Positions 44,870 to 63,882 of a stretch of DNA of 64,000 nucleotides are shown piece by piece. The position numbers and the translations under genes are program-made. Each line of letters starts with the position of its first letter. Position 1 is the stretch's first letter. The notes below the pieces were generated by a model. It saw only the letters and a list, made by a program, of their open reading frames with translations. It ran no database searches and was not told where the DNA came from. The stretch covers positions 341 to 64,340 of the forward strand of contig SUWW01000004.1 of NCBI GenBank assembly GCA_015061285.1, written 5' to 3'. This DNA is from Bacteroidales bacterium. GTDB taxonomy: Bacteria > Bacteroidota > Bacteroidia > Bacteroidales > Marinilabiliaceae.

Positions 44870-45367
44870 TTACTTGAGTCGGAGCGGTTTGCGCGAGATG
44901 CCGTTGAGCGATTTACTGCGCTTACGGGAGCTGCCGCCGCTGCTCTTGTTCATTAGCTTATAGCCCGCAAAAGCGACGATGCCAACGCCTGCCGCTATGA
45001 GGACGTACTTGCCGTATTTCTTGATTTTTTCGCCCATTATTGAGTTGTTGTTAGATGGTTGGTTTGTGACTATTGTAGATGTGACATCTGACTGTGGCGT
45101 GTCTTTGACTGTCGGAGTTGTACTCGGCATTGCAAGATACTGTGACGAGACGAAGCCCTCGGTAGTGTTGTAGCGCACAGGTGTCCATCCGCTCGTAGTC
45201 GTGCAGTTGAGGACATCCACTGTCGCACCACGTGGAATGCGTAGTAGCGAGAGGCTCGACGTTGTCGGTGCTTGGCGCAGATTGAGTGGATCGGTCTTCG
45301 TAGCTACAACGCGCTTGCCGACTGATGCCAGATTCTTGAGTGCCGATGCTGTGGTTATGTTTGCCAT
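44870..45367 (-). CDS. SH3b-domain protein with C-terminal TM and basic tail
   Basis: LNLRQAPTTSSLSLLRIPRGATVDVLN..GWTPVRYNTTEGFVSSQYL, then TM YVLIAAGVGIVAFAGY. Confidence 0.55.
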   Translation of the reverse strand: MANITTASALKNLASVGKRVVATKTDPLNLRQAPTTSSLSLLRIPRGATVDVLNCTTTSGWTPVRYNTTEGFVSSQYLAMPSTTPTVKDTPQSDVTSTIVTNQPSNNNSIMGEKIKKYGKYVLIAAGVGIVAFAGYKLMNKSSGGSSRKRSKSLNGISRKPLRLK

Positions 45368-47721: not shown

Positions 47722-48762
47722 TTAGCACGGAAAATCCTTTTTCTCTGATGGTTTCTTCTCGTAGAAGCACTTGTCTACAACAGGGTCAACGACGAGTTCC
47801 TTGTCGCCATCGCGCACGACCACATAGACGTGCTGGAAGTAGCTACGCCCATTGTACTTAGCTATGCGCAATGAGAATGTAATGCCGAGGTTTGTAAGTA
47901 TGCTGCCTATGAGCGTAGCGTAACAATCGCAGTCGCCTTTCTGGTCGTAGAGCGTGCGCAATGGTCTGCGAACCTGCTCCATGACAGCCGAGTCAGGTAC
48001 GTACTGGATATGCTGATAGACGAAGTTCCAGATGTTTTGAAGGGTCTCTCGTAGAGATGATGCACGTAGCGACTGTGCCAAACGTGCTGTATCGCTTGTC
48101 GTCTCACGTATCACCTTGTGCATAAACAAGACCGTCTGCTCAGGCGCTGCGCTGCTCATTCTGATTGCGTCTTCACGGCGAAGTTCTGTGCGTGGTGGGA
48201 TTAGCGCTGCGTAGTCGCTAAGTGGGCGTATGCTTCGTTTGCTCGATGCCGTGAGTCCAAGGCTACCAAGCGACGTCTGTTTGTCAAACCTCATGTTGCC
48301 GCTGATAGTTGCCAGTCCGTTGACTGTCACAGCAAACTGCAACGACGTATTGGCAATGACCTTCGTGAAATCTTTGCTCATGAGGTCATTGAGATTGTCG
48401 AGAATTGTGGTGAGTAGGTTGTTGATTGGTATAGCGATACTCAGTCCTTTGAGTCTGCTTGTGCTATTCGGCGAAATGACAACAGTCGCTCCCTCCTCAG
48501 GCACATCCACTTTTGCGACTTCACGCCCTGCAATGATTGCCGAGCCTTGAAGAACGGTCACAGTTGCCTTCTCCGCGGTTGGGTTGGTGATGTCGATGCA
48601 GATGGGTATGGTGAGTTTCGACAGACTGATCTTCGGCTTGTCGTAGACCTTCGGCACGAAAGAAATCTGCTGCGCCATGTCGGCATACCCTCTGACTTTC
48701 CTCAGTAGTATGACCGCCAACGCCCCTATAGCCCCAATGAGTATAATTGCCTTGCTGTTCAT
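47722..48762 (-). CDS. membrane-anchored protein with transglutaminase-like cysteine-protease core
   Basis: N-terminal TM. C-terminal Cys-His-Asp pattern (KGDCDCYATL, FQHVYVVV, VVDPV). Confidence 0.5.
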   Translation of the reverse strand: MNSKAIILIGAIGALAVILLRKVRGYADMAQQISFVPKVYDKPKISLSKLTIPICIDITNPTAEKATVTVLQGSAIIAGREVAKVDVPEEGATVVISPNSTSRLKGLSIAIPINNLLTTILDNLNDLMSKDFTKVIANTSLQFAVTVNGLATISGNMRFDKQTSLGSLGLTASSKRSIRPLSDYAALIPPRTELRREDAIRMSSAAPEQTVLFMHKVIRETTSDTARLAQSLRASSLRETLQNIWNFVYQHIQYVPDSAVMEQVRRPLRTLYDQKGDCDCYATLIGSILTNLGITFSLRIAKYNGRSYFQHVYVVVRDGDKELVVDPVVDKCFYEKKPSEKKDFPC

Positions 48763-48876: not shown

Positions 48877-49785
48877 TTAAACGTTCGCTTCTACTGTATA
48901 TTGTCTCTTTTTGAGTATAAACAATTCGTATTTACCTCGAACAGTTTCTGATAGTTTGGTTAGTTCGCTTTGGGCGTAGGCTAATCGTTCGTGATAGTCT
49001 TTCGTATAATCATATTCGGGATACTTCCAGCATCTATCTTCGTATTTTACATTCACTGACACTATCTGACGCAAATAAGTTATGCATTTACAGTCAAAAG
49101 TCTGAAGTGCATCTATATATTGCTGAAATAAATAGTTTAATTCATTTGTTAAGAACTTATTTGAAGCATATTTGAATGCCTCGATTATAGAGTCCATTTT
49201 TTTGTACTCTTCATGTCTAATAAATAGATTGGTAGGTACATACTGAATAATGTCATATAACTCTGTTTCAGAGAGCATCCCGTTTAATTTTTGGAAAACT
49301 GACTCATTCTTGTACTGAATAGAATCTTTATAGAACCTATCACAAATAGAATTGTAGTTGTTGATTATAGTATCAATAGCAGTCTTAGCTATCTTTTTTA
49401 GTTCATTGCGATTTGTATAAGGTGAGAGCCTTTGCTGGTTAATATCAAATGGATAATCAGTTATAGATTCATCTTTTTTGAGAAAACACACAATACGTTC
49501 CCATCCTAAAGTTTTTACTGCATAACCCAACTCCACTAAAACATTGGGATTAGGAATACAATCATCACCTTTTTTGATAGTAGTTGTTAGGTCACAAATA
49601 AAGATGTCGCATTTGCCTATCTTATTGAAAATTGTTGTCGGTATATTGGGACTGCCTGAACAATTACGAGTGGCCTCATCAATATTTACTAATTCATTTT
49701 GGTTTGCATAGTCTTTTAGAGCTTTCCTAATGTCATTTGAATTCTCTTTGACATCCGATTGCCAAGAAAAGAAAATTGTATACAT
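48877..49785 (-). CDS. TIR-like / nucleoside-deoxyribosyltransferase-like N-domain protein with helical C-terminal domain
   Basis: IFFSWQSD at the N-terminus and CDIFICDLT..NPNVLVELGYAVKTLGWERIV motif, typical of bacterial TIR-like (STIR) domains. Confidence 0.45.
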   Translation of the reverse strand: MYTIFFSWQSDVKENSNDIRKALKDYANQNELVNIDEATRNCSGSPNIPTTIFNKIGKCDIFICDLTTTIKKGDDCIPNPNVLVELGYAVKTLGWERIVCFLKKDESITDYPFDINQQRLSPYTNRNELKKIAKTAIDTIINNYNSICDRFYKDSIQYKNESVFQKLNGMLSETELYDIIQYVPTNLFIRHEEYKKMDSIIEAFKYASNKFLTNELNYLFQQYIDALQTFDCKCITYLRQIVSVNVKYEDRCWKYPEYDYTKDYHERLAYAQSELTKLSETVRGKYELFILKKRQYTVEANV

Positions 49786-49851: not shown

Positions 49852-50532
49852 TTAGCCTACTCCCTTAATCTTTATGTTGTTCCCCGTTCTAACCAGCTCT
49901 TTCGCGTCTTTCAGGTGCGCTTCAAGTTCTTCTGACGGGACAAAATAAATCTTAGGAGTATTTGCCCGTGGGAAACGATTGAAGAATGGATCTGTCGAAA
50001 CAACCCATTTTAGCTCAGCCATGTTAGGAAAACTTGGCATCTCGTCCCAAAGTTTGAAAAGACAGGACTTAGTCGCAACAGTCACACCTCGCTTGCCTGT
50101 TCTCAGACGAGAAACGCAAATGAGATGCTGGCGAGTCTCGGTATCATTATCGTGCTCTTCTTTTGTCACATTATGGATTACAGAAATATTCCTGTTGAAC
50201 TTCATGTTGATTTCTTTCATCTTTTGGGAGAACAAATCCCCATGAGGTGCATTGTCCTGCATCTGGTTATAGAGAATCCAATAGTGAATCATTTCATGGA
50301 TTATCGTATCCTCGACTTGCGATTCTGGGAGATCAAGTTTAGTACTTATGACAAACTGAAATCCACAATAGTGCCATGTGCCGTCGGGATTCTTATCTCT
50401 AACAAATCTTACTTGGCCAAGAAACGTTCGTGCATTGCTAAGTTTGAAGGGAAGCAACGGTAGCTTCCCTTCAAAACATAAGTCGTTGAATTCGCTAAAC
50501 TTAGCCTTTACATACTCAAGTGTAGGAATCAT
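49852..50532 (-). CDS. SprT-like zinc metalloprotease domain protein
   Basis: SprT N-terminal pattern FEGKLPLLPFKLSNARTFLGQ and HEMIH zinc motif followed by HG. The C-terminal 110 aa are unassigned. Confidence 0.7.
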   Translation of the reverse strand: MIPTLEYVKAKFSEFNDLCFEGKLPLLPFKLSNARTFLGQVRFVRDKNPDGTWHYCGFQFVISTKLDLPESQVEDTIIHEMIHYWILYNQMQDNAPHGDLFSQKMKEINMKFNRNISVIHNVTKEEHDNDTETRQHLICVSRLRTGKRGVTVATKSCLFKLWDEMPSFPNMAELKWVVSTDPFFNRFPRANTPKIYFVPSEELEAHLKDAKELVRTGNNIKIKGVG

Positions 50533-50538
50533 AATGGA

Positions 50539-53463
50539 CTATTCTTTCTCGCTTTCTAAATTTGCCTTATACTGAGCAAATAGTTCTTCGTCTTCAGGTG
50601 TAAGTACAACCTTGACAATGTCTGCAAGATTGAACTGAATGTACCAACAGCAAACGCTATCATCTATCTTGTCTACTCCAGTATTCTTGCTTGAATAGAC
50701 TACGTCATACTGGTTAAACCTATCTGGAAAAAGCTCGTAAGGACTGTCAGAATTAAGAGCAACAATCGCTTGACTTCCACTATAGTCTTGCGAAGCTCGC
50801 AGATAGAGGGCCTTGACCTGCTTAACCTCATACGGAAATACTCCATCGTTGTACGAACTCAAGTCGTAGTACTTGTCTGGATCTGCTTCATCGACAAGGA
50901 TGAAATTACCCATGATGTCTTTCGCAAGGTAAAGAGAACAAGTCGTTCGCTTTATTTCTCTTATCTCCTCTGTCTTAATGCCTGCAAGAATGTCGAACAA
51001 GAATCCTTGCTTGATAGGCAGGCGAAGGATGTCCTGTTCCGTATATGGCGCAGGAGGTGCAATCGTAATCTGTTTACGCGGAGCGCGTAACTTCTTGTTG
51101 CCGTTTATGGTGAAGATGCCTGCGTTAACCTTCTGCTGCACTACGAAGACTGGCCAATAGAACGGAGCATTGCGCCAGCCATTAGCTTCATCACCATTCT
51201 GACCAAGCAGCATAAGTACAGGTCTGTCTACTGCCTTATCACGTGATGGGGCAGTGTCGCTGTGACCATCGTCAGGAGAATCAATCCAACGTTTACCTTT
51301 CGTTGCTGATTCTTGGCGTTCACGGCTCATGTTACGACCTGTACGATGCAGGCAATAAATGAAACCATCTGAGCCAAACGTACAATGTTCGAGTGCGGTC
51401 AGCATCTCGTTCTTGTCCCAGAGGAAATCTACATTCTCGTATTCTTCGCCATAACGGAATGTACTGTCTATCAAATTGATGATTTCGACAGCCGTCTCGT
51501 ATGACATGAGGAAGAATTGCTCTTCATCGTTGACGTTGACGTAATCTGGACATGACTTGATGAGTCTCTCAATCTGCGAAACAGCATCAGATATTTCTTC
51601 AGATGTTCCTGTTTGAAAACCGACGGGGAGTATACGCTGCTTCGGTTTTATAACCTTTGTATTGGCAGGCGTGTACTTGTTAGCTGCACTTGGATTGATG
51701 CGATTATCATAACCAATCACCATGCTTGTGAAGTCATCTGTCTGAACGGTATCGCGATGGGCTTTCAGGTACTCATACATCATCGAATCGATGCTGTTGA
51801 TAGATTTGAGCACACTGTAAATGGCTTCTGTCGTAAAGAAACGAGTGCAGGCCATGTCTTCCTTGTCTCGTGCGCCATACATACGTGCATGTTGCAGAAC
51901 AGTGTCCATCTGGAACTTCTTGGGGTCACGTCCATAGAAGAAGCAGAGCATGTTGTCAATCGTGATGCCGCGATCGAGGATGTTGCCTCCTATGAAGAAA
52001 TTCATGGCCTGTTCAAGACGAAGTTGTCCTTTCTCGTTTAGCATGGTGGAAACTGGATTCTCAGAATTGACTACATTGATGGTGTAGTCATTGTACTCCA
52101 AGATACGCTTAACCTCTGCTTCAACTTCGGCAAACGTCGGGTACTTCTCACTGATGAGTTCATACTTGTTGCCAAGCTCGTTGCTCAACTTGAAACTCTC
52201 GTACGCATCTCTTTCCAAGTCAAGTATGTGGAGGTCTGAATTAGATTGATTCAAGAATGCATTCTTGATGTCATCTATTATCTCTGTGATGAGTTTTTCC
52301 TGCCAGGCATGATTCTTCTTTGAAATCTCGCAATGGATAAGACAGCTTGAATAGTATTTCTTGTTGGTCTTCTTCTTTACCTGTATACTACGAATAGCAG
52401 TAGCAAAGAGATAGCTGACAATTGCAAAGTTCAGTGAGTCAAGATTGTCAGAGTGTGCTTTCGATTGCAAATACCACTCATTTCTTGCCGATAGAACATC
52501 TATGCAGACCTCGTCTACAGGTTGGTAAAGACAGCTGTACATAGAATTCTCATCTTCGCTTAGTTCATAGTACTGACGACCGCCAATGTATCTGTTGTGA
52601 ATCGGTACGAGGCCAGTATAACGAGGCAACCAAGGTGATGCCTCTTCTCCATTACGTAGCTGTATCGTACCATCTGGTTGCAAATAGAGAGAATACGGTG
52701 TCGCTGTTATTTGCAAGTATCGACAGTATGTTGGCAGAGTGATGAACTTCTCAATGTGCTCTGCTATCTTCAACAGTGATAGTTCGCCCTTCCTCTTGTA
52801 ATAGTTACGGCTGGCAAAGTCTGCCTCATCATCGCAAACCAGAACTTTCTTACTACGAAGAAGTTCACTCTTCTCGAAAATCGCATTGAGATACGATAAG
52901 TTGGTATCCTCCTTTTTTACAACGATGATAAACTTGTTTGCTGGATTGTTGAGCTGATAATCGCTGAGACCACCGCGATGGCCAAGGTCAAGGATGTCCC
53001 AAACAGAAATAATAACTTTCTGGTTATAGGTCTGCTGATCCTTGAAGAAGCGGAAGTCATTGTTAAGTCGCTGTATGGTCTGCTTCGTCAACGTGTTAGT
53101 GCCTTTGGTCATAACCACTGCAACGTCAATTCCTCTATCGAAGCATAGCCCCATGATGCTAAGGAAGGTATCGGTCTTACCGCACTGCACTTTACCAAGC
53201 AAAAGGCAAGGTTGCTTAGCGGTTTCATCTTCCTTCATCAGCTGATCGACCATCTCGCGGACAACTTGTTCCTTCTCTTCCGTCATGAACTTGTTGTTCG
53301 CCTTCATCGTCCCAAAGATGTACTCGTCTTCAGGAATGGAATTCTCCATCTCAATGCGTTCCTTCTCATCCAGCACCCATTGTGGCACTGGCTTACCTTT
53401 CGCTTCGAGGAAGTCTATATAGTCGTTGACTTCGTCTTTATTTGCAAATCGCTGTGTCTCCAT
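50539..53463 (-). CDS. Z1-domain SF2 helicase-like protein with C-terminal ASCH/PUA-like extension
   Basis: LLLGKVQCGKT (Walker A), VCDDEADFAS, QITATPYS. Z1 core GGNILDRGITIDNM..LQHARMYGAR. C-terminal LPIKQGFLFDILAGIKTEEIREIK. Confidence 0.7.
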   Translation of the reverse strand: METQRFANKDEVNDYIDFLEAKGKPVPQWVLDEKERIEMENSIPEDEYIFGTMKANNKFMTEEKEQVVREMVDQLMKEDETAKQPCLLLGKVQCGKTDTFLSIMGLCFDRGIDVAVVMTKGTNTLTKQTIQRLNNDFRFFKDQQTYNQKVIISVWDILDLGHRGGLSDYQLNNPANKFIIVVKKEDTNLSYLNAIFEKSELLRSKKVLVCDDEADFASRNYYKRKGELSLLKIAEHIEKFITLPTYCRYLQITATPYSLYLQPDGTIQLRNGEEASPWLPRYTGLVPIHNRYIGGRQYYELSEDENSMYSCLYQPVDEVCIDVLSARNEWYLQSKAHSDNLDSLNFAIVSYLFATAIRSIQVKKKTNKKYYSSCLIHCEISKKNHAWQEKLITEIIDDIKNAFLNQSNSDLHILDLERDAYESFKLSNELGNKYELISEKYPTFAEVEAEVKRILEYNDYTINVVNSENPVSTMLNEKGQLRLEQAMNFFIGGNILDRGITIDNMLCFFYGRDPKKFQMDTVLQHARMYGARDKEDMACTRFFTTEAIYSVLKSINSIDSMMYEYLKAHRDTVQTDDFTSMVIGYDNRINPSAANKYTPANTKVIKPKQRILPVGFQTGTSEEISDAVSQIERLIKSCPDYVNVNDEEQFFLMSYETAVEIINLIDSTFRYGEEYENVDFLWDKNEMLTALEHCTFGSDGFIYCLHRTGRNMSRERQESATKGKRWIDSPDDGHSDTAPSRDKAVDRPVLMLLGQNGDEANGWRNAPFYWPVFVVQQKVNAGIFTINGNKKLRAPRKQITIAPPAPYTEQDILRLPIKQGFLFDILAGIKTEEIREIKRTTCSLYLAKDIMGNFILVDEADPDKYYDLSSYNDGVFPYEVKQVKALYLRASQDYSGSQAIVALNSDSPYELFPDRFNQYDVVYSSKNTGVDKIDDSVCCWYIQFNLADIVKVVLTPEDEELFAQYKANLESEKE

Positions 53464-53482
53464 AGTTGGAATGTTTGTTCTG

Positions 53483-54088
53483 TTAGCTTATAAATTCAAA
53501 ATAAGGATAAGTTTCAATATTGTCCAACTCGCTGTAAGTCGGATTATTGACAAGAAAGGCTTTCTTGTAGAATGAGAGGCTAAAATCTGAGAGGCCAGAC
53601 AGTCTGCAAGCTTTATATATGCCTGTTTCAGGACGTGTTATAAGGCCAGCCTCAACCAACATCTTTATGGCACTATTGAAACCAATAGTACTATCGACAC
53701 TTGAGCCGTACTTCTCGCTAAGTTTCGCTATTATAAGACTTGTTGGTACTTCGTCTTGTACGTGAAAATGTTTTCCAAGCAGTGTCACAAGGTCATAGAA
53801 TAGCGGATATGCAGCGCACATAAGAGCAGTATATACTGCGGTTTTGTTAGTCCCTTGAATGCTATTGGCAAGAAACTCGTGTGAATGCTCTTTTATGAAA
53901 GGTAATAGCTGATTATTTACGGTCATGCGTCGAATTGTTCTATTCACCTTCTCTGTGCGGCTTTTGCCACTTGTTTCCAAAGCGACAAGTTCGAGTATGT
54001 AATCTTTAGTACACGATCCGTTGAGTATTGCCGACATGGCAAGACTCAACGAACCTAACGATGCTGATGCCTTTACTCCTATCGCCAT
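53483..54088 (-). CDS. BrxA-like (DUF1819-like) small helical protein, tentative
   Basis: 201 aa. Start shares one nt with the PglZ stop codon. Position after pglZ as in type 3 BREX. Sequence resemblance is only loosely recalled. Confidence 0.3.
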   Translation of the reverse strand: MAIGVKASASLGSLSLAMSAILNGSCTKDYILELVALETSGKSRTEKVNRTIRRMTVNNQLLPFIKEHSHEFLANSIQGTNKTAVYTALMCAAYPLFYDLVTLLGKHFHVQDEVPTSLIIAKLSEKYGSSVDSTIGFNSAIKMLVEAGLITRPETGIYKACRLSGLSDFSLSFYKKAFLVNNPTYSELDNIETYPYFEFIS

Positions 54089-55548
54089 TATAGTCTCCCT
54101 ATCTTTATCAATGGTACAATCATTTCGAGAAAATGACTACCACCATGTGTTAACATTGTTGTTCTGTCATTGACAAAACAATGGTTGTCGCGTATTGACA
54201 TCCAATTGTCATGCTTTATCATACGTATATCTTGATTCTCTTGGAAGAAACGCTCCTGTTCTTCCTTGTTGTTATATATGAGATGCCTAGCTCCACGACT
54301 CCCGTCTTTATATAAGAATACTTTCTCAACCTGGCTCAGTGTTCGCCATCCGTATGAAAGCACACTACCATGGTCTGACGTCAGATATAGTTTATAGCCA
54401 GCATTCACAATAGTTATAATCTGCTCTACAATTCTTGGACACCAGTTCTCTGTCAATGAATACAAGTCTTTGTAGTCAGACGACGAATGCATCTTCTCGT
54501 CCATCTTGACGGTCACCACTGCCAGACATTTTATGCCCTCGTTTATGGCAAACTCATCTTTGTCGCTAATATATTGAACATCATAACTTCCTAAGCCTTG
54601 TGAGCGCCAGAAGTCCACCCAGAGTTTCTTTTCATTCTCTGGACTTTGTTTGTAGTCTTGTTGTGGAACAGCTCCGCGGAAAATGGCTTGCCTTGATAAC
54701 ATCGTGATGCTCGGCATCCAAGCCAATGTGCAACCGTCTTCTATGTTGATTGTCTCTCTGCCCAAGTATTCCTTCAGTATGACGTATTGCCAGTATGCAA
54801 AGCCATCAACAACAAGTAAGGCGATCTTTTCGTCTCCTTCTCTGTTTGCTGCTATGTGTGGAAGTATCTTATTAACGCTCTTGGCTTTTAGCAGCGCATT
54901 ACTCTGAAGTGTCGCAAAGTATTCTTTGTCTACCCAATTTTGGAAAGACTCATTTATCTCGTCAATCTTATTTTCTATGCCTTCGTAGACACCTTCTTTG
55001 ATTGCTTTAGCCAGAACCTGTGAAACTAAAGAGATAGTAGTTGCCTTATTCCAATCTAATTCAATGTCAGCAAGTTGCTTCGCCAAATAATCTGCCGATT
55101 TGCGTTTCTTGTCTGCAAGATCTTTGGCAATTGCTTGAACGAGTAGTGTACATTCCTGTAAACTGACCTTTCTGATGTCTATTTGACTGTGTAGTATATC
55201 AAGGACTTCAAATGGTTGCTTTTTCAGTAGGGCTTTGTCTGCAAACAACGGGAAGACATCACTGATGGAAAAATCTACTACGTGTGCACTCCGCTTCATG
55301 TCAGCAAGTATTGTGTCTTTCGATTTGCAGATATATACGTAGCGTCTCCCAGTAGAAACTTTATAGTGCAATTCGTAGTGTATGCGCAGTTGCAGATTAC
55401 TGCCGACAACGACTTCTATGCCACAATCCTGAAGTAAAAGTGCGCGCACCACATCTTGTGAGAGAAATCCGTCGGGATTCTCCACAATGCTCAGATTGCA
55501 GTAGTCTACCGTAATCCGTTGTGCTACTTTCTTTATCAGATCGCTCAT
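54088..55548 (-). CDS. pglZ: PglZ-domain alkaline-phosphatase-superfamily protein (short form, 486 aa)
   Basis: ALLVVDGFAYWQ, MPSITMLSRQAIFRG, LTSDHGS and THGGSHFLEMIVP motifs. Confidence 0.8.
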   Translation of the reverse strand: MSDLIKKVAQRITVDYCNLSIVENPDGFLSQDVVRALLLQDCGIEVVVGSNLQLRIHYELHYKVSTGRRYVYICKSKDTILADMKRSAHVVDFSISDVFPLFADKALLKKQPFEVLDILHSQIDIRKVSLQECTLLVQAIAKDLADKKRKSADYLAKQLADIELDWNKATTISLVSQVLAKAIKEGVYEGIENKIDEINESFQNWVDKEYFATLQSNALLKAKSVNKILPHIAANREGDEKIALLVVDGFAYWQYVILKEYLGRETINIEDGCTLAWMPSITMLSRQAIFRGAVPQQDYKQSPENEKKLWVDFWRSQGLGSYDVQYISDKDEFAINEGIKCLAVVTVKMDEKMHSSSDYKDLYSLTENWCPRIVEQIITIVNAGYKLYLTSDHGSVLSYGWRTLSQVEKVFLYKDGSRGARHLIYNNKEEQERFFQENQDIRMIKHDNWMSIRDNHCFVNDRTTMLTHGGSHFLEMIVPLIKIGRL

Positions 55549-56024
55549 CAGTCCTTGAATTGTTTCTCTATTTCAAGGCGTCGTTCACGTCCATTATTGA
55601 TGGCCACCTTTACCCATTCCTCGTATTCTGTTCCGTCTATAAGGCTTTGTATTATGGCCGTCAGCACTTCTTTCTCTAAGCAACCTGCAGCAAGGTCAAG
55701 CACCAGTTCTTCGGTGTCCTTCATGAAACTTTGGGCTGCCAGCAAGTAACCATTTTGCAGTAGGAAGTACATCGTCAGTGTGATTGATATGCGCTTGTTG
55801 CAGTCCTCAAAGTAGTGACCTCTGCATAGGCTAAACATCATATATGCAGCTTTGTCAGCAATTTCAGGATAGTACACGTCGTTTTGCACCATATCCAATA
55901 CTAATTGTATGCCTCCAACGTCACGCACTCCTGCTAAGCCTCCACCACTCTTTTCTACTGTTTTCGCGTAGATTTTGAGAGCCTGCTCATAGTCTATGTA
56001 TTCTATTCCCATGGCGGTTCTCAT
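55548..56024 (-). CDS. doc: Doc/Fic-family death-on-curing toxin
   Basis: Fic/Doc motif HYFEDCNKR (HxFxD[GAC]NKR). 158 aa. Confidence 0.8.
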   Translation of the reverse strand: MRTAMGIEYIDYEQALKIYAKTVEKSGGGLAGVRDVGGIQLVLDMVQNDVYYPEIADKAAYMMFSLCRGHYFEDCNKRISITLTMYFLLQNGYLLAAQSFMKDTEELVLDLAAGCLEKEVLTAIIQSLIDGTEYEEWVKVAINNGRERRLEIEKQFKD

Positions 56025-57029
56025 TTATTGCTTCAAGTGGTCAAGCACGTCTTTATTCTCTTCGAGCAGTCTGTCGAAGTCGTTCGACGTATCACCTAAG
56101 AATTTCTGATACTCTTCTGGCATAACAGCACGTATATAGGCTGCCAAATTACCATGATATACGTTTCTAAGCGCATTATCACGCGATGCCATCTTGACGC
56201 GAGCATCCTCGACAATAGGCTTTCCAAACGGCATGGCGGCCAACTGCTCTACTATTTCGCCTACTTGTGCTATGCTCAATGACCTCCCCAACTCTTGGGC
56301 ACGACGTGTAATTTCATCGGCTGCACCATTCTCGAAAGCAGAAACAGCTGTGAGAACCTCTGAGTAAAGCGTGTGCCTAATATTGTCCTTCTTGGTTAAG
56401 GCGAGCAGTTGTTTATACTCCTTGGCTTTCTCGCAGAATACAGCTTTGTATATCAAGTCTGTTACTTGAGCATACTTAAATGTCTTATGGCCTTCGACGT
56501 ATTTGTTGATGGCATCAGTAAGATTCTTGTGGTAATTTTCTTCTATTATAGCAGAAGCAAGATAACCACTGTCACGTCGATTTATATACTTTGTGTTACC
56601 TCCTGTCTTTTCGTAGATGGAATACAGGACTATGTCGAGTATCTTGCTGCGCAACATCTTGGCCTTTTCGCTGTCGGTAAGTAGCATACCTACATTGAGA
56701 AAAGCTCTAAAATCGAAGAGTCCTAACAGAGTAGTTTTGGTAGCGACATCGATGTCGCTACCAAAACGTAACTTAAACTCTTTCAATGCGTTACCCTTAC
56801 ATAAAAAGTAACCATTGCTCATTATTTCCTCTTCGTTAGCCTTGATGCACCTGTCTATTGTGCGCACATCGACCTCATAAAAATCGGCCACTTGTTGCCT
56901 GGTTATCACATACTTCCCCTGAAACTCATAGAACTTTACATCCAGAGATTCCTGTATCTTGGGTAGGGCAATGGCGTTGTTCAATATGTTTTGTCTGTCT
57001 ATAGCAGACGTAGTCAAATCCTTTGTCAT
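56025..57029 (-). CDS. ORF6N/KilA-N-like DNA-binding N-domain protein, putative partner of Doc
   Basis: N-terminal FQGKYVITRQQVADFYEVDVRTIDRCIKANEEE resembles ORF6N-type domains. Its stop abuts the doc ATG. Confidence 0.45.
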   Translation of the reverse strand: MTKDLTTSAIDRQNILNNAIALPKIQESLDVKFYEFQGKYVITRQQVADFYEVDVRTIDRCIKANEEEIMSNGYFLCKGNALKEFKLRFGSDIDVATKTTLLGLFDFRAFLNVGMLLTDSEKAKMLRSKILDIVLYSIYEKTGGNTKYINRRDSGYLASAIIEENYHKNLTDAINKYVEGHKTFKYAQVTDLIYKAVFCEKAKEYKQLLALTKKDNIRHTLYSEVLTAVSAFENGAADEITRRAQELGRSLSIAQVGEIVEQLAAMPFGKPIVEDARVKMASRDNALRNVYHGNLAAYIRAVMPEEYQKFLGDTSNDFDRLLEENKDVLDHLKQ

Positions 57030-57048
57030 ATCTAATGCTTTCGGCCTA

Positions 57049-59769
57049 TTATATCTTATTCATCGCTATATCGTAGAGCATGAGCAGCACCTCATCCTCA
57101 TCTCGGAGGTTCTGCGGTATCTTATCGCCTACGGCAACTATCGTCTGAAAGTCGTGGTCGCTGTAGCACTGTTGGAAGCCTGCTCGTAGAGCCTCTACGC
57201 GAGCCTCTTTTATTCGGCCTTTCTTGTTTGCTGCTTCTACGTACACCTTGAACTCTCGGAGCAGAGCTTTGTTGCGTAGGACTTCCTTATCAACGTTATC
57301 GTGAACATCTGGCAAGCGCCACTTGCCATCTTCCATCTCTATGAAGTTTTCTTCGAGTATGGTCTTCAGCTCTGGCAGAATATCTCCCTTGCGGGTTGCT
57401 ACGAGGGCTTTCATCCACTTGGGCTGCAACTCCTGATAGGTCTGCGCTCCATTGACTTTGAGCTCGTTCTTTAGCCAATTGATGCCTTCCTCCTCACTGC
57501 CGATAAACAGAGCCAATACGGCCATTCCGTCTGTATTCTTCTTCTTTTCTTCGTATTCCGCTGCTTGCGCAGCAGTGAAGAACATACCGTCCCGCTCGAT
57601 GTAGCGTTCACGCAGGCCTTTTTGAAATTCCTGTGCATCCATTGGCACTGGCATACCATGCACCACATAGTAACTAATTAGGCGGTCGTATAATATCTTC
57701 GGACTGCGCTCGACCACAGTAGTTGTCTTATTTTCTCTTTCTATATGGATGGCCAGATGCTCCAAATGTTGCTGAATGAAATCCCATACTACATCAGGCC
57801 TGTTCATCTGTATCTCAAATTGCGCAGACAACTCTTCTGATGGCTTATAGCAAGTGATAACAAGGTCTTGCTTCACGGCTGTTGTGGTTGTTACCGCGTT
57901 GAATGAGCCTTGTCTTTTATCAAGAGCTGATACGTTGGCAACTATAAATCCTGCGTATTGCAAAGCCGACTGTATTGAATTCCATACAATGGCATTTGTG
58001 TTACTAAACTCAACTGTCATCCATTTGCCAGGTTTCAGTACTCTCCAATACTCATAGAAACACTGACTGATAGTTTCACGATAATGCCGTGCATCTTTAC
58101 CTTGTGCAGGATTTTCAATGGCTTCGTGGCTATTGTTTGTTACTACTCGCAGCCACGGCTCGGGAAGTGAGTTTAGCTCTGAATAATAGATATTTGCGCC
58201 GAATGGCGGGTCTGTAAATATATAGTCAACGCTGTCGTCGGACAACTGAAGTGAATCGGCAGAGCCAACATAAAGTGCATTTGGACGCTCCTTTGCAAGA
58301 AATTCTGCGGTACGTACCATAGCGCTGTATTTATCACCTATTTGCTCCAATACAGAAGTTTCGGTGGGTGCATTCGGCACATAAAGCGTTCCTTTCAAAA
58401 ATCCAGCATTCCAACCGCCACCACCATTGAAATAGTAATTTATATGCACACGGTTCATACACGTCGAACGGTTAATCATTGCCGTGAACATAAAACGTAA
58501 TGCGTGTGGCATCTTTGACTTTTCAATTTTATCGTAGAGTTTAGCTAGGACTATAAGGTTACGCTTTGTGTAGAATTGGTGGGCATAATAGATTCCCCTA
58601 TCGGTGTTTCTTTGCGTCTCTTGTCCCTCTGGTAGAGTGTAGGTTGGGTAGAAAATATCAATTTTAGTTTCTTCGATACGTTTCAGTACGTCAAAGTCGA
58701 AATCGGTGGGAGTTCTCTGAATCTTTTCTTTTCCAGCCTTGCCAACTACTATCACAGGCACCTGCTTCACTCTTTGTGTAGTTTTCTGCAAAGCATCATC
58801 AAAATATGTCTCTATGGCAGCTCTTGCAGTTTTCTTAGACTGCATAGCATTACAATGAGGACATACAAACTCATCAAGCATACATTTGTGCTCATGATCT
58901 ACAGCTTGATGCCAAAACACATACTCCTTCCCACATTCAGGACAAATAAAGATGTCACTCCACACTACAAAACTAATCTTCCCATTGGGTTCTCCTTTGC
59001 TATTCGTTGTAGTGTACATCCATCCGCATTCATCCTCCATCTCTTTCTGAATACGCTCAACCTCAGCTTTGAGTAGCGAAACATTTACTGGTGTGTTGTA
59101 AAAATAAGCGATATTGGTGGCATAGGGCGAGAGGTCGCCAATAATAGCATGGCGTGTTCCCCAAATGGGCTTGCGTCCGAACTGTTTTTCCCACTCAATA
59201 TTGATGCGCTTAGCTATTTCATCATTTTCATTGGAGCAAGCTGCTGCGGCAACACCAGTCATTCCTGTGCCTGCAAAGCCATCAAGCACAATGTCTCCAG
59301 GTTGAGTATACTGTAGTATATAACGCATTATGGCAGGGTGCGGCACCTTGGTATGGTACGTGTGGGCGGTATATACAGGATTGTTTTTCCCCTCGCTTAC
59401 ATCACTTGCATACGGTTCTTTCACCTCAAAATCGGCCTTGCGTTTGCCCTCGGCTTCAAGTTGTTTTTTTTCCTCTTCCCATTGTGCAATAAAGTCGTTC
59501 AGCCATGGGTTAGGGCAGGCCGTGTAGTATGGCGGGTCGGAGAGATTTATTATGTCGTCATCGTTGCCAATAGGGAATCCTTCTATCTTCCGCAACTCTG
59601 GCAATTTCTTGCGCAGCTCATCGCGAAAGTATTCTCGGCGTGCATCATCGTTTGGGAATGTATGGCCAAGACAAGTTACTTCGGCATTGTTGAGAAGTGA
59701 ATTGTCAACCAACTTGTCAAGTTCCTCGGTAGAGAACAGCGAGTTGTTATTGCTATCTTGTTTTGCCAT
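57049..59769 (-). CDS. adenine-specific DNA methyltransferase with inserted Zn-ribbon (PglXI-like)
   Basis: SAM motif VLDGFAGTGMTG preceded by HTKVPHPAIMRYIL. CPECG..CPHC zinc ribbon. FTDPPFGANIYY catalytic-type motif, plus an N-terminal SDPPYY. Confidence 0.75.
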   Translation of the reverse strand: MAKQDSNNNSLFSTEELDKLVDNSLLNNAEVTCLGHTFPNDDARREYFRDELRKKLPELRKIEGFPIGNDDDIINLSDPPYYTACPNPWLNDFIAQWEEEKKQLEAEGKRKADFEVKEPYASDVSEGKNNPVYTAHTYHTKVPHPAIMRYILQYTQPGDIVLDGFAGTGMTGVAAAACSNENDEIAKRINIEWEKQFGRKPIWGTRHAIIGDLSPYATNIAYFYNTPVNVSLLKAEVERIQKEMEDECGWMYTTTNSKGEPNGKISFVVWSDIFICPECGKEYVFWHQAVDHEHKCMLDEFVCPHCNAMQSKKTARAAIETYFDDALQKTTQRVKQVPVIVVGKAGKEKIQRTPTDFDFDVLKRIEETKIDIFYPTYTLPEGQETQRNTDRGIYYAHQFYTKRNLIVLAKLYDKIEKSKMPHALRFMFTAMINRSTCMNRVHINYYFNGGGGWNAGFLKGTLYVPNAPTETSVLEQIGDKYSAMVRTAEFLAKERPNALYVGSADSLQLSDDSVDYIFTDPPFGANIYYSELNSLPEPWLRVVTNNSHEAIENPAQGKDARHYRETISQCFYEYWRVLKPGKWMTVEFSNTNAIVWNSIQSALQYAGFIVANVSALDKRQGSFNAVTTTTAVKQDLVITCYKPSEELSAQFEIQMNRPDVVWDFIQQHLEHLAIHIERENKTTTVVERSPKILYDRLISYYVVHGMPVPMDAQEFQKGLRERYIERDGMFFTAAQAAEYEEKKKNTDGMAVLALFIGSEEEGINWLKNELKVNGAQTYQELQPKWMKALVATRKGDILPELKTILEENFIEMEDGKWRLPDVHDNVDKEVLRNKALLREFKVYVEAANKKGRIKEARVEALRAGFQQCYSDHDFQTIVAVGDKIPQNLRDEDEVLLMLYDIAMNKI

Positions 59770-59775
59770 AGTTAT

Positions 59776-62700
59776 TTACTTGAAGATGATGCGCACATTG
59801 TCGGCTTTGCTACCATTCGTTAGTTGATCAATATAACCACGGAATGCTTTGAGTGCTTCGTTTGGTGTCATCGGCCGATTGAATACATTGCGACGAATAT
59901 CATCTACCCCAATTGTTATCTTGTTGATACCTTGATGTAGTTTGCCGACAATGCTAACCAATCGTTCAGCATTCGTAGGCGACAACTCCTCGTCTCCATT
60001 GTTGAAGCGGTTCAGTAATCCCTGCTCGCTGTCGTCGAGAATCTCCTTGTTCTTCAGTAAGTCTTCGTCCCTGAGTATGACATGGAGTGTTTCTTCGGCA
60101 TTGGCATATATTGCTTCAAGTTCGACCTTCAAATCGCCAAGGTCGGGCAATTGCTTACCAACAAAAGACATAGGGTTGAATCCCTGATAAGGCACACGAA
60201 GCACTGCGTCTTTGTTGACATTCGGGCTACTCATAGTGAGCGACTGAATCTTCCTCTCCCATTCGCTATACTGTGTGGCCATAGAGAAGTAGCCATTGCT
60301 TTGGTCTGCTCTACAGATGGTTTCGCATACCTTCTTTTCGTTGCTATTGAGTAGCTTGTTCTTCTCTGCATTTTGTATAGCAGTGATATGCAGTCGGTTG
60401 TATTCCGAGAGATACCAGTCGGCATAATTGCTCATGATGGCATCAAGCTCAGCCTTATAAGCGCTCACCTTCTGCTCGTCGTTCATCTCGGCTATTACGC
60501 CGTTTATCTTCTGTATGGCAGAGTCAACAGATTGCTTCATCTCTTCGCTCGTCATGTACTGCTTAGCCTGATTCAAGTAGCTGAAGCGAGAACTGAATTC
60601 CGAGACTATCGAGAGTTTCTTCTTTATTTCGTCCTTCTTGCGAATCAGTGCGCACTTCTCCTTTATCTCGTTGGTAGGCCAAGGCAGATTGCGCATCTTT
60701 GTTGGAGTAGCATAGGCCTGAAGTTTGTCGCACATGCCAGCCAGAGCTTTGAAGTCGTTGTTGAGTTTTAAGCCTTCGCTTGGCGATAGTATCTCGTGTC
60801 CTTGAAGTTCTATACCGTTTGCAACCTTGTGACCTAACTCTACTGCGTCAGCTGCAATAGTCTTGGCATTGCTAAGTAGTTCGGCATATATCTCCAGATT
60901 CTGTAGCTGGGCCGTCATGTCCTTGCCCGTGATGCCAAGGAAGAGCTCACGCACTGCCGCCACATTCATTCCTTTGGGTGCGCGGATGTGCGAGAAGGTA
61001 TATGTCTTGTCGTGCGCAAAATTCTCGATGTCAGCAAGATTGGTTGCATTGATACTTACACCACCAGGGTAGTCAATTTCAATTTCGCCCATCGCAACCA
61101 TGGCCGCAAGCACAAGGAACTCGTATTCAGAATCGATGTCGAAGTCGTTGCTGCGCCATTCGTTATCCCACTCTTTGAAGAACCGATGCAAAATCTCGTC
61201 TCGGTTGAGAACCTGCCCTTCGCCCTTGTTATGCAATTTTTCCTTTATGCTTATTGCATACTGGCAAGCATCCACACTGAGCTGATTGTCTTGCAAGAGT
61301 GATAGACCTGCAAGTATTGCATCGCCATCAGAGTTTACTGTCGCTGGATTGGCAATCTTGCGTCGTGCTCCTTTGAGAATGTTTACACGATTCACTTCAG
61401 TCAACGGAGCACGAAGAAGTGTGAACTTAGGATAGTTTGGCAACTGCTGACAGAAATAGTCTTCGAGTAGAGTGCTGGCTATATTGCTAATTATCTGCTC
61501 TTTAGAGCCACCGTTCATCTTGTCTGGCGTAACAGGTTGCGCCTCGCCTTGATAAACTATTTCTGTGCATTGCATGAAGTCGCGCTGGAAGAGCGCCTTC
61601 AACTTGTCGGTATATCGTTTCTTATACTCCTCGTAGAACGGCTTCTGCGAACTATCTACACTGGCTATAAGAGCCTCTGTAGAAGCGTATAGCTCCACAT
61701 AATCCTTCATCTCTTGACTTATCTTGTCAAGGTGAACGTAAACACTGTCTGGCTCATCGTCATGCTTCATCTTCGCCTTATTGAAGATAGGCATGAAGTA
61801 TATGTAGAAGTTCTGTTGCGGCTGTGTTGTGCTACGTTCATTTGGATTACCCATGAATATGTAGCCGTCAAGCATTATCTTATGACTCTTCCACTCTATG
61901 CGGTGACAGAATATCTTGAACTCACGTCGATATTGCTCTGTTTCGATGGGCAGATATTCCACTAGGAAGTTGAAGAAATGGCTATCCTTGTTGTCGTCAC
62001 TCATGGTGGCTACGAAGTCCTTAATCTTCTGTTCGTAGTTAACGCCGCCCTCGATGCGCAGGTGAAATTCCTGATTATTGTCGTTCTTCTCGAAGTACTG
62101 ACCAACAGTGGCCGTGACTATTTGGTTGGCCACGGTATTTATGGTGTCGAGCAAGAACTCGCGACTGAGGCAAGTCGCATCAACATAACAGAGATCATCG
62201 ACAAGATTCTCCGCGCTTACACCATTAGTCTTTTCGAGGCTGTCTTGAAGTATCTTTACCGCACAGGCATTGGCAATGCGATGCGCAAGAGGAGCCTTCT
62301 TTGCACGTGCGGCAGTGAAGTTTTCGTCTATCTTCTGATGGACTATATCCATGATTTCCGTCACTCGACGAATATCTGGATTGGTCTGCATATCGCTTAC
62401 CTGCAAATCTTCCCAATAGCTATCATAGCAGATAAGTCCAGGATTTGTCTCTGGTACATCTACATCGAGCAACGACTCAAACTTGCGGGTGAGAGTCTTC
62501 ATTACCTCTCGCTGACTCTTGCCAATCTTGATTTGCTGGAAGTTCTCAAAGAACGATGGATTAACAGGGAACAGGTTCACGTAGTTTTCCAAATTGGCAT
62601 GTATGTCGCTAAAATACTGCGTGAACTTGCTTAGATGCTTGCGAATAATGTCTTTCTGCGCATCATTCTTATGAAGTAGACGTTGTTGCACCACAAACTG

Positions 62701-63453
62701 CACGTCTTGTTTGGTGATTTCAATCTGACGGAAACGGTCGTTGACCTTCTGCAACATATTAGCTGCGAACTGGAACTCTGGTGCTTTGTATATATGCTCC
62801 TGTACGCCAAACACCATTCGGAATTTGCTGTGGTCACTCATCTGACCAAAAGCCTGTAGCACGGCGAGGTCTCGGTTCAAGTCAGCCGAGCCGCTACGTC
62901 CCTTTAGATAGCTAAGCATCTCGTCGATGACAATCATCAGGCCTTTACCCTGGAACGTTTCTTCAAACTGAGCCATCATGCGGTTCAATTTGTCGGTGTA
63001 CATATCAGGCTTGTCGTCCTTTTCTATGCTGTAGTCGACGCCCCATTTTTCGAGTTGCAAGTCTATTTGATGGCAAACTATACGCCAGAGCTCATCGTTA
63101 GAGCCTAATTCAAAACGAACAACCTTGTACTTTCCTGCAATATTTCGCAGCACCTGACGTGCCGTGTCGCTTTTGACAAATTCCAAGTATTGCTCGTCTT
63201 CGGCCACAAGAGAAAATAACGACATCAGGTGTGATTTACCTGTACCGTAATTACCCACTATCTGTAGACCGTATGTATCGTAACTCGCTGTGTAATCAAG
63301 ATTCTTACACAGCGTAGGGATTATATTCTTCTCATAAGCCTCTGAAAATACGAAATCGCTCACCAGCGAACGACGATAATCGTTCTCCTGTAGCCTATCG
63401 AATTTTACTACTTCGTTTATCGGTTCAAACTGAATAAGATCTCTATATTTCAT
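59776..63453 (-). CDS. brxC: BrxC/PglY-like large P-loop ATPase
   Basis: 1225 aa. N-terminal KYRDLIQFEPINEVV and Walker A GNYGTGKSH. Placed between the BrxF-like and methylase genes. Confidence 0.7.
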   Translation of the reverse strand: MKYRDLIQFEPINEVVKFDRLQENDYRRSLVSDFVFSEAYEKNIIPTLCKNLDYTASYDTYGLQIVGNYGTGKSHLMSLFSLVAEDEQYLEFVKSDTARQVLRNIAGKYKVVRFELGSNDELWRIVCHQIDLQLEKWGVDYSIEKDDKPDMYTDKLNRMMAQFEETFQGKGLMIVIDEMLSYLKGRSGSADLNRDLAVLQAFGQMSDHSKFRMVFGVQEHIYKAPEFQFAANMLQKVNDRFRQIEITKQDVQFVVQQRLLHKNDAQKDIIRKHLSKFTQYFSDIHANLENYVNLFPVNPSFFENFQQIKIGKSQREVMKTLTRKFESLLDVDVPETNPGLICYDSYWEDLQVSDMQTNPDIRRVTEIMDIVHQKIDENFTAARAKKAPLAHRIANACAVKILQDSLEKTNGVSAENLVDDLCYVDATCLSREFLLDTINTVANQIVTATVGQYFEKNDNNQEFHLRIEGGVNYEQKIKDFVATMSDDNKDSHFFNFLVEYLPIETEQYRREFKIFCHRIEWKSHKIMLDGYIFMGNPNERSTTQPQQNFYIYFMPIFNKAKMKHDDEPDSVYVHLDKISQEMKDYVELYASTEALIASVDSSQKPFYEEYKKRYTDKLKALFQRDFMQCTEIVYQGEAQPVTPDKMNGGSKEQIISNIASTLLEDYFCQQLPNYPKFTLLRAPLTEVNRVNILKGARRKIANPATVNSDGDAILAGLSLLQDNQLSVDACQYAISIKEKLHNKGEGQVLNRDEILHRFFKEWDNEWRSNDFDIDSEYEFLVLAAMVAMGEIEIDYPGGVSINATNLADIENFAHDKTYTFSHIRAPKGMNVAAVRELFLGITGKDMTAQLQNLEIYAELLSNAKTIAADAVELGHKVANGIELQGHEILSPSEGLKLNNDFKALAGMCDKLQAYATPTKMRNLPWPTNEIKEKCALIRKKDEIKKKLSIVSEFSSRFSYLNQAKQYMTSEEMKQSVDSAIQKINGVIAEMNDEQKVSAYKAELDAIMSNYADWYLSEYNRLHITAIQNAEKNKLLNSNEKKVCETICRADQSNGYFSMATQYSEWERKIQSLTMSSPNVNKDAVLRVPYQGFNPMSFVGKQLPDLGDLKVELEAIYANAEETLHVILRDEDLLKNKEILDDSEQGLLNRFNNGDEELSPTNAERLVSIVGKLHQGINKITIGVDDIRRNVFNRPMTPNEALKAFRGYIDQLTNGSKADNVRIIFK

Positions 63454-63468
63454 GTTGTTAGTTGCTTT

Positions 63469-63882
63469 TTATATGTATTTATAGGAAAGTCCTTTGAGGT
63501 TCACTGCAATATTGTCGGTGGATGATAGAAAATAAAGCTTGTCATCTTGCACCATAGCATCTGACCTTACAAACAAACACAGGCCTTTTGAGTACGAATC
63601 CAAGATTGCATAAACGTCAATCTTCAACTCAGGCTCGAATAGAATCCCGACATTTTCGATGGCAATGTATTTACCAATTGTTGGATGAACGCGAATCTGA
63701 CTTAGCACCTGCTTGTATTTCGACTCAACACCATTCTCCACTGACGTATCCTCTTTCACGAGTGCAGACAACTCCCTGCCGACATTGACGAATTGTATTC
63801 CATCGATGTCGTCTTTGCAAAAGACTATTCTATTCCTCGTGTTTTGTTGAGTGTACGCCAATATATCTCGGATCGAAGCCAT
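63469..63882 (-). CDS. BrxF-like small protein lacking a Walker A motif, tentative
   Basis: 137 aa, first gene of the operon. IAIENVGILFEPELKIDVYAILDSYSKGLCLFV resembles the C-terminal half of BrxF as I recall it. No GxxxxGK[ST]. Confidence 0.3.
   Translation of the reverse strand: MASIRDILAYTQQNTRNRIVFCKDDIDGIQFVNVGRELSALVKEDTSVENGVESKYKQVLSQIRVHPTIGKYIAIENVGILFEPELKIDVYAILDSYSKGLCLFVRSDAMVQDDKLYFLSSTDNIAVNLKGLSYKYI

Follow-up and report, generated by a model that had tools for sequence, protein, structure and literature searches.

A candidate type 3 BREX sub-type of Bacteroidales with a DEAD-Z1 motor in place of BrxHII

We analyzed a 64,000-nucleotide (nt) stretch of Bacteroidales DNA (contig SUWW01000004.1), referred to in its whole length as the window, and an operon within it at 49852-63882. 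The operon is probably a variant of the type 3 bacteriophage exclusion (BREX) system on mobile DNA, in which the motor BrxHII would have been displaced non-orthologously by a DEAD-Z1 helicase-like protein. The anti-phage mechanism of BREX is unresolved, and type 3 has hardly been studied; its gene order is reportedly brxF-brxC-pglXI-brxHII-pglZ-brxA, as Goldfarb et al. are said to have described it in 2015.

Open reading frame (ORF) listing revealed nine tightly packed minus-strand ORFs in the region, separated by 15, 6, 19, 0, -1, -1, 19 and 6 nt, exactly the gaps given in an initial annotation of the same DNA. Hidden Markov model (HMM) scans with Pfam, PADLOC and NCBIfam recovered each gene identity proposed there, and the core order brxF-brxC-pglXI-...-pglZ-brxA is that of type 3, as proposed. 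The count of ten genes was a miscount, since the accompanying list has nine entries and eight gaps correspond to nine genes. The GC content of all nine genes lies at 0.41-0.455. Scans for sigma-70 promoters, terminators and the Bacteroidetes -7 motif TAnnTTTG performed no better than on shuffled sequences and are uninformative on internal promoters.

Z1 and BrxHII in two clades of type 3 loci

A tblastn search with a bona fide BrxHII query found nothing in the 64-kb window, in agreement with the absence of BrxHII noted at the outset, and the Z1 protein gave no match to BrxHII models in an HMM check. Related loci were collected in two sets. One genome per species was scanned with a PglZ alignment, yielding 38 loci, almost all from Bacteroidales, which were mapped with the window proteins; a scan of metagenomes with a Z1 alignment yielded 80 further loci. 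Labels beginning with L denote individual loci.

In the window's clade, identity to the window proteins is 39% or more for PglZ and 55% or more for BrxC, and the order is brxF-brxC-pglXI-(optional insert)-pglZ-brxA-Z1. Z1 is present in all 13 genome loci of this clade with DNA past brxA, and no genome locus of the clade has either a BrxHII match or room for one. Wherever related loci extend far enough, brxA and Z1 are separated by -17 to +26 nt (19 nt in the window); Z1 is thus not an unlinked neighbor, an outcome the initial annotation had allowed for. It had also suggested checking whether Z1 and SprT-like genes co-occur with this BrxC/PglZ clade; Z1 does, and SprT is optional. In the sister clade, whose PglZ is 33-39% identical to that of the window, a full BrxHII ORF of 921-923 amino acids (aa) lies just 5' of pglZ in 14 loci, with a partial or degenerate copy in two more (L027, L030). 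These BrxHII proteins are bona fide (PADLOC 808 bits; SNF2 and Helicase_C domains), and Z1 was found in none of the sister-clade loci among the 38. The metagenome set is consistent with this division: Z1 genes at least 52% identical occur in 52 loci, with brxA directly upstream in 46 of the 47 that have upstream DNA and BrxHII in none of the 52.

Neighbor-joining trees of PglZ, BrxC and BrxA each show a clean division between a Z1 and a BrxHII clade, and pairwise Z1 distances correlate with those of BrxC (r 0.83) and PglZ (0.81). On the basis of the locus census, the trees and the distance correlations, Z1 is taken to be an inherited, co-diverging part of the window's BREX clade, mutually exclusive with BrxHII, and the exchange of BrxHII for Z1 defines, in these trees, a monophyletic BrxC/PglZ clade. 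The tree of PglXI (pglXI genes of L001-L036) is mixed and does not follow the split, which suggests that the methyltransferase (MTase) gene, and with it specificity, has been exchanged between the two sub-types; PglXI distances correlate with those of no other gene (r ~0.3). Two loci, L032 and L033, have PglZ and BrxA in the BrxHII clade and pglXI near pglZ, with neither BrxHII nor Z1 within the available stretch, and may represent helicase-less or rearranged systems.

The backbone proteins were assigned individually. BrxC is matched over its full length by Pfam DUF6079 (786.8 bits) and by PADLOC BrxC (833 bits). PglXI scored 1093 bits with PADLOC PglXI and 55.9 bits with PF01555, and contains the motifs DPPY (78), FAGTG (165), CPEC (276), CPHC (303), FNGGG (447) and DPPF (520), the zinc ribbon spanning 276-306. 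Its two MTase motif sets run in opposite order on either side of the ribbon (DPPY to FAGTG, then FNGGG to DPPF), and each half is matched separately by PADLOC type II MTase models. PglZ exceeds the Pfam PglZ cut-off (50.5 bits against 25), and its best NCBIfam model is the type 3 model BREX_PglZ_3, at 178.7 bits under a cut-off of 250; residues D248, T282, D392, H393 and H468 are invariant. More than 500 PglZ homologues of about 486 aa exist, in both clades, and truncation of a longer PglZ by toxin insertion was rejected on this ground. BrxA is recognized by PADLOC (E 1e-11) with no Pfam match, and in related loci of the window's clade it always lies between pglZ and Z1. The BrxF-like protein is a weak match (PADLOC BrxF E 5e-6; NCBIfam BREX_3_BrxF 21.9 bits against a cut-off of 50); its position and size are constant across 20 or more related loci, and the GK[ST] motif is absent from the BrxF-like proteins of both the Z1 and the BrxHII clade. 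The catalytic motifs of the operon are intact, including Walker A of BrxC, Walker A and DEAD of Z1, HEMIH of SprT, HYFEDCNKR of Doc, and DPPY and the zinc ribbon of PglXI. Identical or close proteins occur in Bacteroidales metagenome-assembled genomes and in gut and rumen metagenomes. Megablast of the region against E. coli genomes gave no match, which rules out E. coli as the host.

The operon shares with type 3 BREX the backbone and its order, with a DUF6079 BrxC, a PglXI carrying a zinc-finger insert, PglZ and BrxA, preceded by a P-loop-less candidate BrxF, and the window's clade is the sister of the canonical Bacteroidales type 3 loci. It differs in having no Snf2/RapA-like helicase BrxHII between pglXI and pglZ and in the DEAD-Z1 gene past brxA, often followed by an SprT-like protease gene. 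According to the survey by Rakesh & Krishnan 2026 (PMC12839542), BrxHII is found in 77% of type 3 systems; the main text of the survey contains no 'Z1 domain', 'SprT', 'ORF6N' or 'Fic', and those of its supplements that were searched contain no 'Z1 domain', 'PF10593', 'SprT' or 'Wss1'.

The DEAD-Z1 motor and its SprT-like neighbor

The Z1 protein is matched by Pfam Z1 (84.3 bits) and PADLOC Helicase_II (E 1e-46). It comprises a Walker A motif (GKVQCGKT, 90-97), a DEAD motif (212-215), a Z1 domain (343-576), an H-subunit-like C-terminal domain to about residue 771 and an extra beta-rich domain at about 800-974; its ATPase motifs are invariant in 24 homologues. Searches of PDB sequences with Z1, as a single sequence and as a profile, gave no match. 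In a tblastn search, Z1 matched the Neisseria gonorrhoeae chromosome at a 629-aa ORF that adjoins a protein identical to R.NgoAVII (PDB 4rct, E 4e-240); this neighbor identifies the ORF as N.NgoAVII, which is homologous to the CglI H subunit. Residues 57-771 of Z1 align with residues 7-614 of N.NgoAVII at 23% identity (BLASTP E 1e-29), including the Walker A, DEAD, TAT and motif VI regions. At the level of sequence, this places Z1 as a homologue of N.NgoAVII/H.CglI over the whole H-subunit length. H.CglI is a characterized superfamily 2 (SF2) helicase-like motor in which the DEAD and Z1 domains are the two RecA lobes, and its ATP-dependent translocation on double-stranded DNA (dsDNA) activates a separate nuclease subunit (PMC5861437).

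The window protein shares H-subunit homology with CglI/NgoAVII, whose R2H2 complexes have a DEAD-Z1 motor as the H subunit (PMC5861437, PMC4267653), and differs from them in several respects. Among the nine operon proteins, Pfam finds neither a PLD/B3 R subunit nor a C5 methyltransferase; Z1 has 55 extra N-terminal residues and a C-terminal domain of about 200 residues; and its partners are BREX proteins. With the Mza system it has the Z1 domain in common, whereas the NCBIfam MzaC model gives only 43.9 bits against a cut-off of 1500, and MutL, AIPR and the remaining Mza partners are absent. The AlphaFold2 (AF2) model of Z1 matches HsdR of EcoR124I, ISWI/Snf2 and DEAD-box motors. Among 1.84 billion representatives, 3231 Z1 relatives were found (204 at E <= 1e-30), in two size classes: 710-790 aa, with the match ending near residue 785, and about 1000 aa, sharing the extra C-terminal domain. 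A public (JGI) gene call for an identical Z1 protein starts 25 codons later, giving 949 aa. Homologues conserve the N-terminus, in support of the 974-aa start.

The last gene of the operon encodes a protein with a Pfam SprT-like match (45.7 bits), in which HEMIH at 79-83 and H97 are invariant. Its AF2 model is confident, with a predicted local distance difference test (pLDDT) score of 89.7, and the sole significant Foldseek hit was to the SprT domain of human SPRTN (6mdx_A, E 5.5e-6, 23% identity). The protein shares the HExxH and downstream His and the predicted SprT fold with SPRTN/Spartan and bacterial SprT, which are DNA-protein crosslink proteases, and differs in being small, stand-alone and translationally coupled to a defense motor. 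The initial annotation had treated SprT as a fixed member of the operon; it is optional, lying past Z1 in 25 of the 52 BREX-linked metagenome loci. These are all among the 37 loci with Z1 at 58-77% identity, at a junction of -17 to +6 nt; where Z1 is 52-55% identical (15 loci), SprT never follows. SprT distances track those of Z1 (r 0.84), not BrxC (0.37).

Z1 and SprT also occur together away from BREX. The metagenome loci include 28 Z1 genes of 39-45% identity with no BREX genes nearby; SprT follows in 15 of the 24 with downstream DNA, and a conserved protein of about 330 aa, 'X', precedes in 13 of the 26 with upstream DNA. In this set, X is joined by a Z1 protein of ~1020 aa and usually by SprT, which L108 lacks. 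Upstream of X lie HsdR-like, TmtA/MkoA-like or type III restriction-modification (R-M) genes. Neither Pfam nor PADLOC matches X, PDB offers no credible match to it, and a relationship to BrxA was rejected (hhalign probability <1%). Its invariant or near-invariant residues D244...E259-x-K261 resemble, by eye, a PD-(D/E)xK-like motif, and X-Z1-SprT looks like an undescribed CglI-like restriction module. Because the pair recurs with distant Z1 genes outside BREX, the Z1-SprT pairing is considered older than its association with BREX, and for the same reason SprT is best assigned to the Z1 motor, as an optional partner, and not to BREX itself. The most likely role of SprT, on which we can only speculate, would be DNA-dependent proteolysis of proteins bound to the DNA under the motor. 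No phage-defense role of the SprT/Spartan family was found in the literature searched.

Alternatively, SprT may stand outside defense, as a mobile-element gene (for example, an ArdC-like anti-restriction or establishment protease) or as a resident gene beside the island, a possibility that we regard as doubtful. Close SprT homologues (53-61% identity) stand alone in unrelated surroundings, frequently with integrase, RhuM or toxin-antitoxin genes as neighbors, and are interspersed with BREX-linked copies in the SprT tree; SprT is the last gene before a break in homology between two loci described below and is missing from 27 of the 52 BREX-linked metagenome loci, and an integrase and a Mob gene are located upstream of brxF in L005, L010 and L011. 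Set against this are the -17 to +6 nt junction with Z1, which is kept at 58-77% Z1 identity and recurs at 39-41% outside BREX, the tracking of Z1 distances, the non-syntenic flanks downstream of SprT across loci, and a GC content that matches the operon. A resident core SprT gene serving as the insertion point of the island was mostly rejected, since downstream flanks are non-syntenic and a block conserved across species includes SprT; the solo homologues count against full rejection. Those in L039, L042, L044 and L047 occupy variable, island-like sites. In L045 (and also L046), two SprT-like genes lie 2 kb apart with MNT/HepT toxin-antitoxin genes between them; one is coupled to Z1, and the other is a distant paralogue (41% identity) beside housekeeping genes.

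Another reading takes the operon as two systems side by side, a helicase-less (minimal or degenerate) type 3 BREX and an independent, co-transcribed Z1(-SprT) restriction-like module, whose Z1 would act on targets of its own and have no part in BREX. The Z1-SprT pairs without BREX genes, often behind X and near HsdR-like, TmtA-like or type III R-M genes, would fit it, as would the common embedding or appending of unrelated defense genes in BREX operons (bioRxiv 10.1101/2024.01.29.577857; PMC12839542). It is nevertheless unlikely, as BREX-linked Z1 has no nuclease partner of its own (neither X nor a PLD R-subunit), Z1 and BrxHII are strictly mutually exclusive, and Z1 co-diverges with BrxC and PglZ, unlike what is expected for freely exchanged cargo such as that of the slot past pglXI. 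The Z1-SprT pair resembles a portion of a CglI-like restriction module that was joined to a type 3 backbone. The initial annotation had posed an undescribed BREX subtype and a BREX fused to a second restriction-like module as alternatives, and each proved only partly true: the sub-type is recurrent and undescribed in the literature searched, and the extra genes come from a restriction-like module, an origin assigned because Z1 is homologous to the CglI/NgoAVII H/N subunit.

Cargo slots, mobility and genomic context

The two genes between pglXI and pglZ encode an ORF6N protein (Pfam ORF6N 28.7 bits; PADLOC PDC-M59A 471 bits) and Doc (Pfam Fic/DOC 38.9 bits; TIGR01550 DOC_P1 39.4 bits; PDC-M59B 155 bits), the latter with HYFEDCNKR at 70, and are adjacent with a 0-nt gap. 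PDC-M59 is a PADLOC candidate from a catalogue, built by 'guilt-by-embedding', of genes that lie within BREX, DISARM and type I R-M operons (bioRxiv 10.1101/2024.01.29.577857); the window pair, with both genes adjacent and embedded in a BREX operon, is as the candidate was defined, and no difference was seen. It is classed here as a separate embedded toxin-type candidate system, which probably serves as an abortive fallback. As a rule, pglXI and pglZ are directly adjacent in loci of the window's clade, and the inserts that do occur are of several types (Table 1); in the canonical clade, Schlafen or AbiGi genes lie between pglXI and brxHII, alongside BrxHII. Since the same slot is filled in canonical loci beside BrxHII, ORF6N-Doc is hot-spot cargo and not a BrxHII substitute; the toxin module had been placed in the BrxHII position, when it in fact occupies a cargo slot directly past pglXI. 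A decaying BREX, in which BrxHII was lost through ORF6N-Doc insertion and function is gone, would explain the missing BrxHII and the toxin cassette at its expected site but is highly improbable, as all nine ORFs are intact, the BrxHII-less layout recurs with full-length genes in dozens of loci, mostly with pglXI abutting pglZ, and the catalytic motifs of PglZ, BrxC and Z1 are invariant.

In that branch of the Z1 clade which lacks SprT, Z1 is followed by a NERD/UvrD-type helicase (PDC-M16A), a PIN_4 protein or a WYL/HTH regulator, and this variety therefore marks a second cargo slot there.

Comparison of L011 with L017 revealed a 12.7-kb block, from brxF to sprT, that is 97% identical between two species. 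Its ends in L011 lie 155 nt upstream of brxF and 64 nt beyond the stop codon of sprT. Homology breaks off at the sprT end, whereas at the brxF end the block starts where the L017 contig does, so only the sprT-side boundary is defined. A tyrosine integrase (Arm-DNA-bind_5, Phage_int_SAM_5) and a Mob_Pre-like gene lie just upstream of brxF in L005, L010 and L011, and the cassette appears to ride on a mobilizable element. L049, which comes from a different sample, has a CI-type repressor gene and a large AAA_34 helicase gene upstream of the same brxF. Because its neighbors include integrase and Mob genes, a CI-type repressor and phage genes, the cassette appears to travel on mobile elements.

The first 19 kb of the window are ordinary Bacteroidales chromosome, with SusC/SusD, AraC and sugar transporter genes. 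Phage structural genes follow at ~19.7-48.8 kb, with a GC content of about 0.50 (0.507), and a prophage therefore lies directly beside the BREX island, which may itself sit inside the prophage or at its edge. A 302-aa ORF, 66 nt downstream of sprT on the same strand and of lower GC content (0.326) than the operon, has weak matches to the CAP12/Pycsar TIR domain (sub-threshold at 21.6 bits; cut-off 24.7), to the PADLOC TIR effector (E 0.0016) and to phrog_3634. It may be a separate TIR-type defense gene between the BREX island and the prophage; no counterpart next to SprT was found in any related locus.

Table 1 Features of the window and of related loci. Positions without a locus label refer to the window.
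Feature	Location	Strand	Remarks
brxF-like	63469..63882	-	137 aa; degenerate P-loop, no Walker A
brxC	59776..63453	-	1225-aa AAA+ ATPase (DUF6079); Walker A GNYGTGKS at 67-74
pglXI	57049..59769	-	906-aa predicted adenine methyltransferase, zinc ribbon inserted
ORF6N/KilA-N-like, PDC-M59A	56025..57029	-	334 aa; embedded cargo
Doc-type Fic toxin, PDC-M59B	55548..56024	-	158 aa; embedded cargo
pglZ	54088..55548	-	486 aa; short form typical of Bacteroidales type 3
brxA-like	53483..54088	-	201 aa
DEAD-Z1 helicase-like motor	50539..53463	-	974 aa
Segment before the later (JGI) Z1 start	53389-53463	-	25 codons
SprT/Spartan-like zinc metalloprotease	49852..50532	-	226 aa; H79-E80-xx-H83, H97
302-aa ORF	48877-49785	-	Possible TIR-type gene
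Baseplate hub	20321-21292		Prophage
DUF2586	22885-23988		Prophage
Major-head-like	28484-29425		Prophage
Tape measure	30265-32226		Prophage
SH3	44870-45367		Prophage
Transglutaminase-like	47722-48762		Prophage
Schlafen/HATPase_c_4 insert past pglXI	L004, L008, L009, L014		Window's clade
Fic insert past pglXI	L001		Window's clade
ORF6N-Doc insert past pglXI	Window, L074, L103		Window's clade
X-Z1 loci	L106, L108, L110-L114, L116, L117, L120-L122, L131		For example L122:4983-9761
Genes after Z1, SprT-less branch	L013:15030-17975, L014:13979-15226, L025:4831-5811		
Two SprT-like genes	L045:8001-8681 and 10624-11307		Also in L046
97% identical block	L011:3091-15804, L017:54-12765		brxF to sprT
Integrase and Mob_Pre-like genes	L011:1-2888		Upstream of brxF

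Proposed mechanism and meaning

Several points weigh against a type 3 variant driven by Z1. Methylation, ATPase activity, translocation and phage exclusion are all predicted from sequence. The BrxF and PglZ scores fall under the NCBIfam type 3 cut-offs. The Z1 model is only moderate (pLDDT 71.8; predicted template modeling score, pTM, 0.39), and the last ~200 residues of Z1 have no assigned function. Z1 homologues at 39-45% identity occur in non-BREX contexts, and Z1 could in principle act independently of BREX. SprT, given its absence from the 27 loci, is not required, and has the close solo homologues described above. Finally, the literature searched holds no description of Z1, CglI or SprT combined with BREX, a negative from incomplete coverage that leaves room for an earlier description.

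In the type 3 variant proposed here, PglXI, loaded by BrxC, would mark host sites by adenine methylation. A BrxC/PglZ/BrxA complex would recognize unmethylated phage DNA and engage the DEAD-Z1 protein, which would hydrolyze ATP and translocate on dsDNA as H.CglI does, supplying the long-range motor step given in canonical type 3 by the Snf2/RapA-like BrxHII (PMC12839542). This step may be coupled to PglZ or to blockage of replication. PglZ is reported to be a metal-dependent nuclease in type 1 BREX (PMC12205998), and could act as a separate nuclease, in the part that R.CglI plays for H.CglI. The Spartan-like protease, more speculatively, would strip proteins from the DNA ahead of the motor. 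In the BREX-related MANTIS / Gao_RL system, a PglXI-like methyltransferase is loaded by an AAA+ ATPase, and restriction falls to a helicase-type motor of its own (bioRxiv 10.64898/2026.09.23.753747); this methylation-based scheme of ATPase-loaded methyltransferase and separate helicase-type effector would fit the same frame for the type 3 family. MANTIS differs in having a DUF499 ATPase and a fused helicase-nuclease and no PglZ, where the window has a DUF6079 BrxC, PglZ and the DEAD-Z1 motor.

Tentatively, the DEAD-Z1 protein and the Spartan-like protease may form a portable motor and protease module that serves different recognition or nuclease front ends. If so, those front ends would include type 3 BREX, as in the window, and protein X, and X-Z1-SprT would be an undescribed stand-alone defense system. 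The protease would free phage DNA, ahead of the translocase, of protein roadblocks, of proteins that protect DNA ends or of anti-restriction proteins bound to the DNA, and it would be the first protease of the DNA-protein-crosslink type in antiviral immunity. A Spartan-like protease tied to a defense motor is a new lead in itself.

The Z1 variant is abundant among Bacteroidales, including Prevotella of the gut and rumen, and current annotation tools probably report it as an incomplete type III BREX. Source names of the Z1 homologues include Prevotella sp. P5-64 and Prevotella sp. SGI.027. The swap of an Snf2 for a Z1 motor suggests that what is needed at this step is a generic ATP-driven dsDNA translocase, and the kinship with the CglI/NgoAVII H subunit, with its known motifs and known single-molecule behavior, provides a tractable handle on it. 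Such a swap would point to modular evolution, in which BREX cores exchange motors with classical restriction enzymes.

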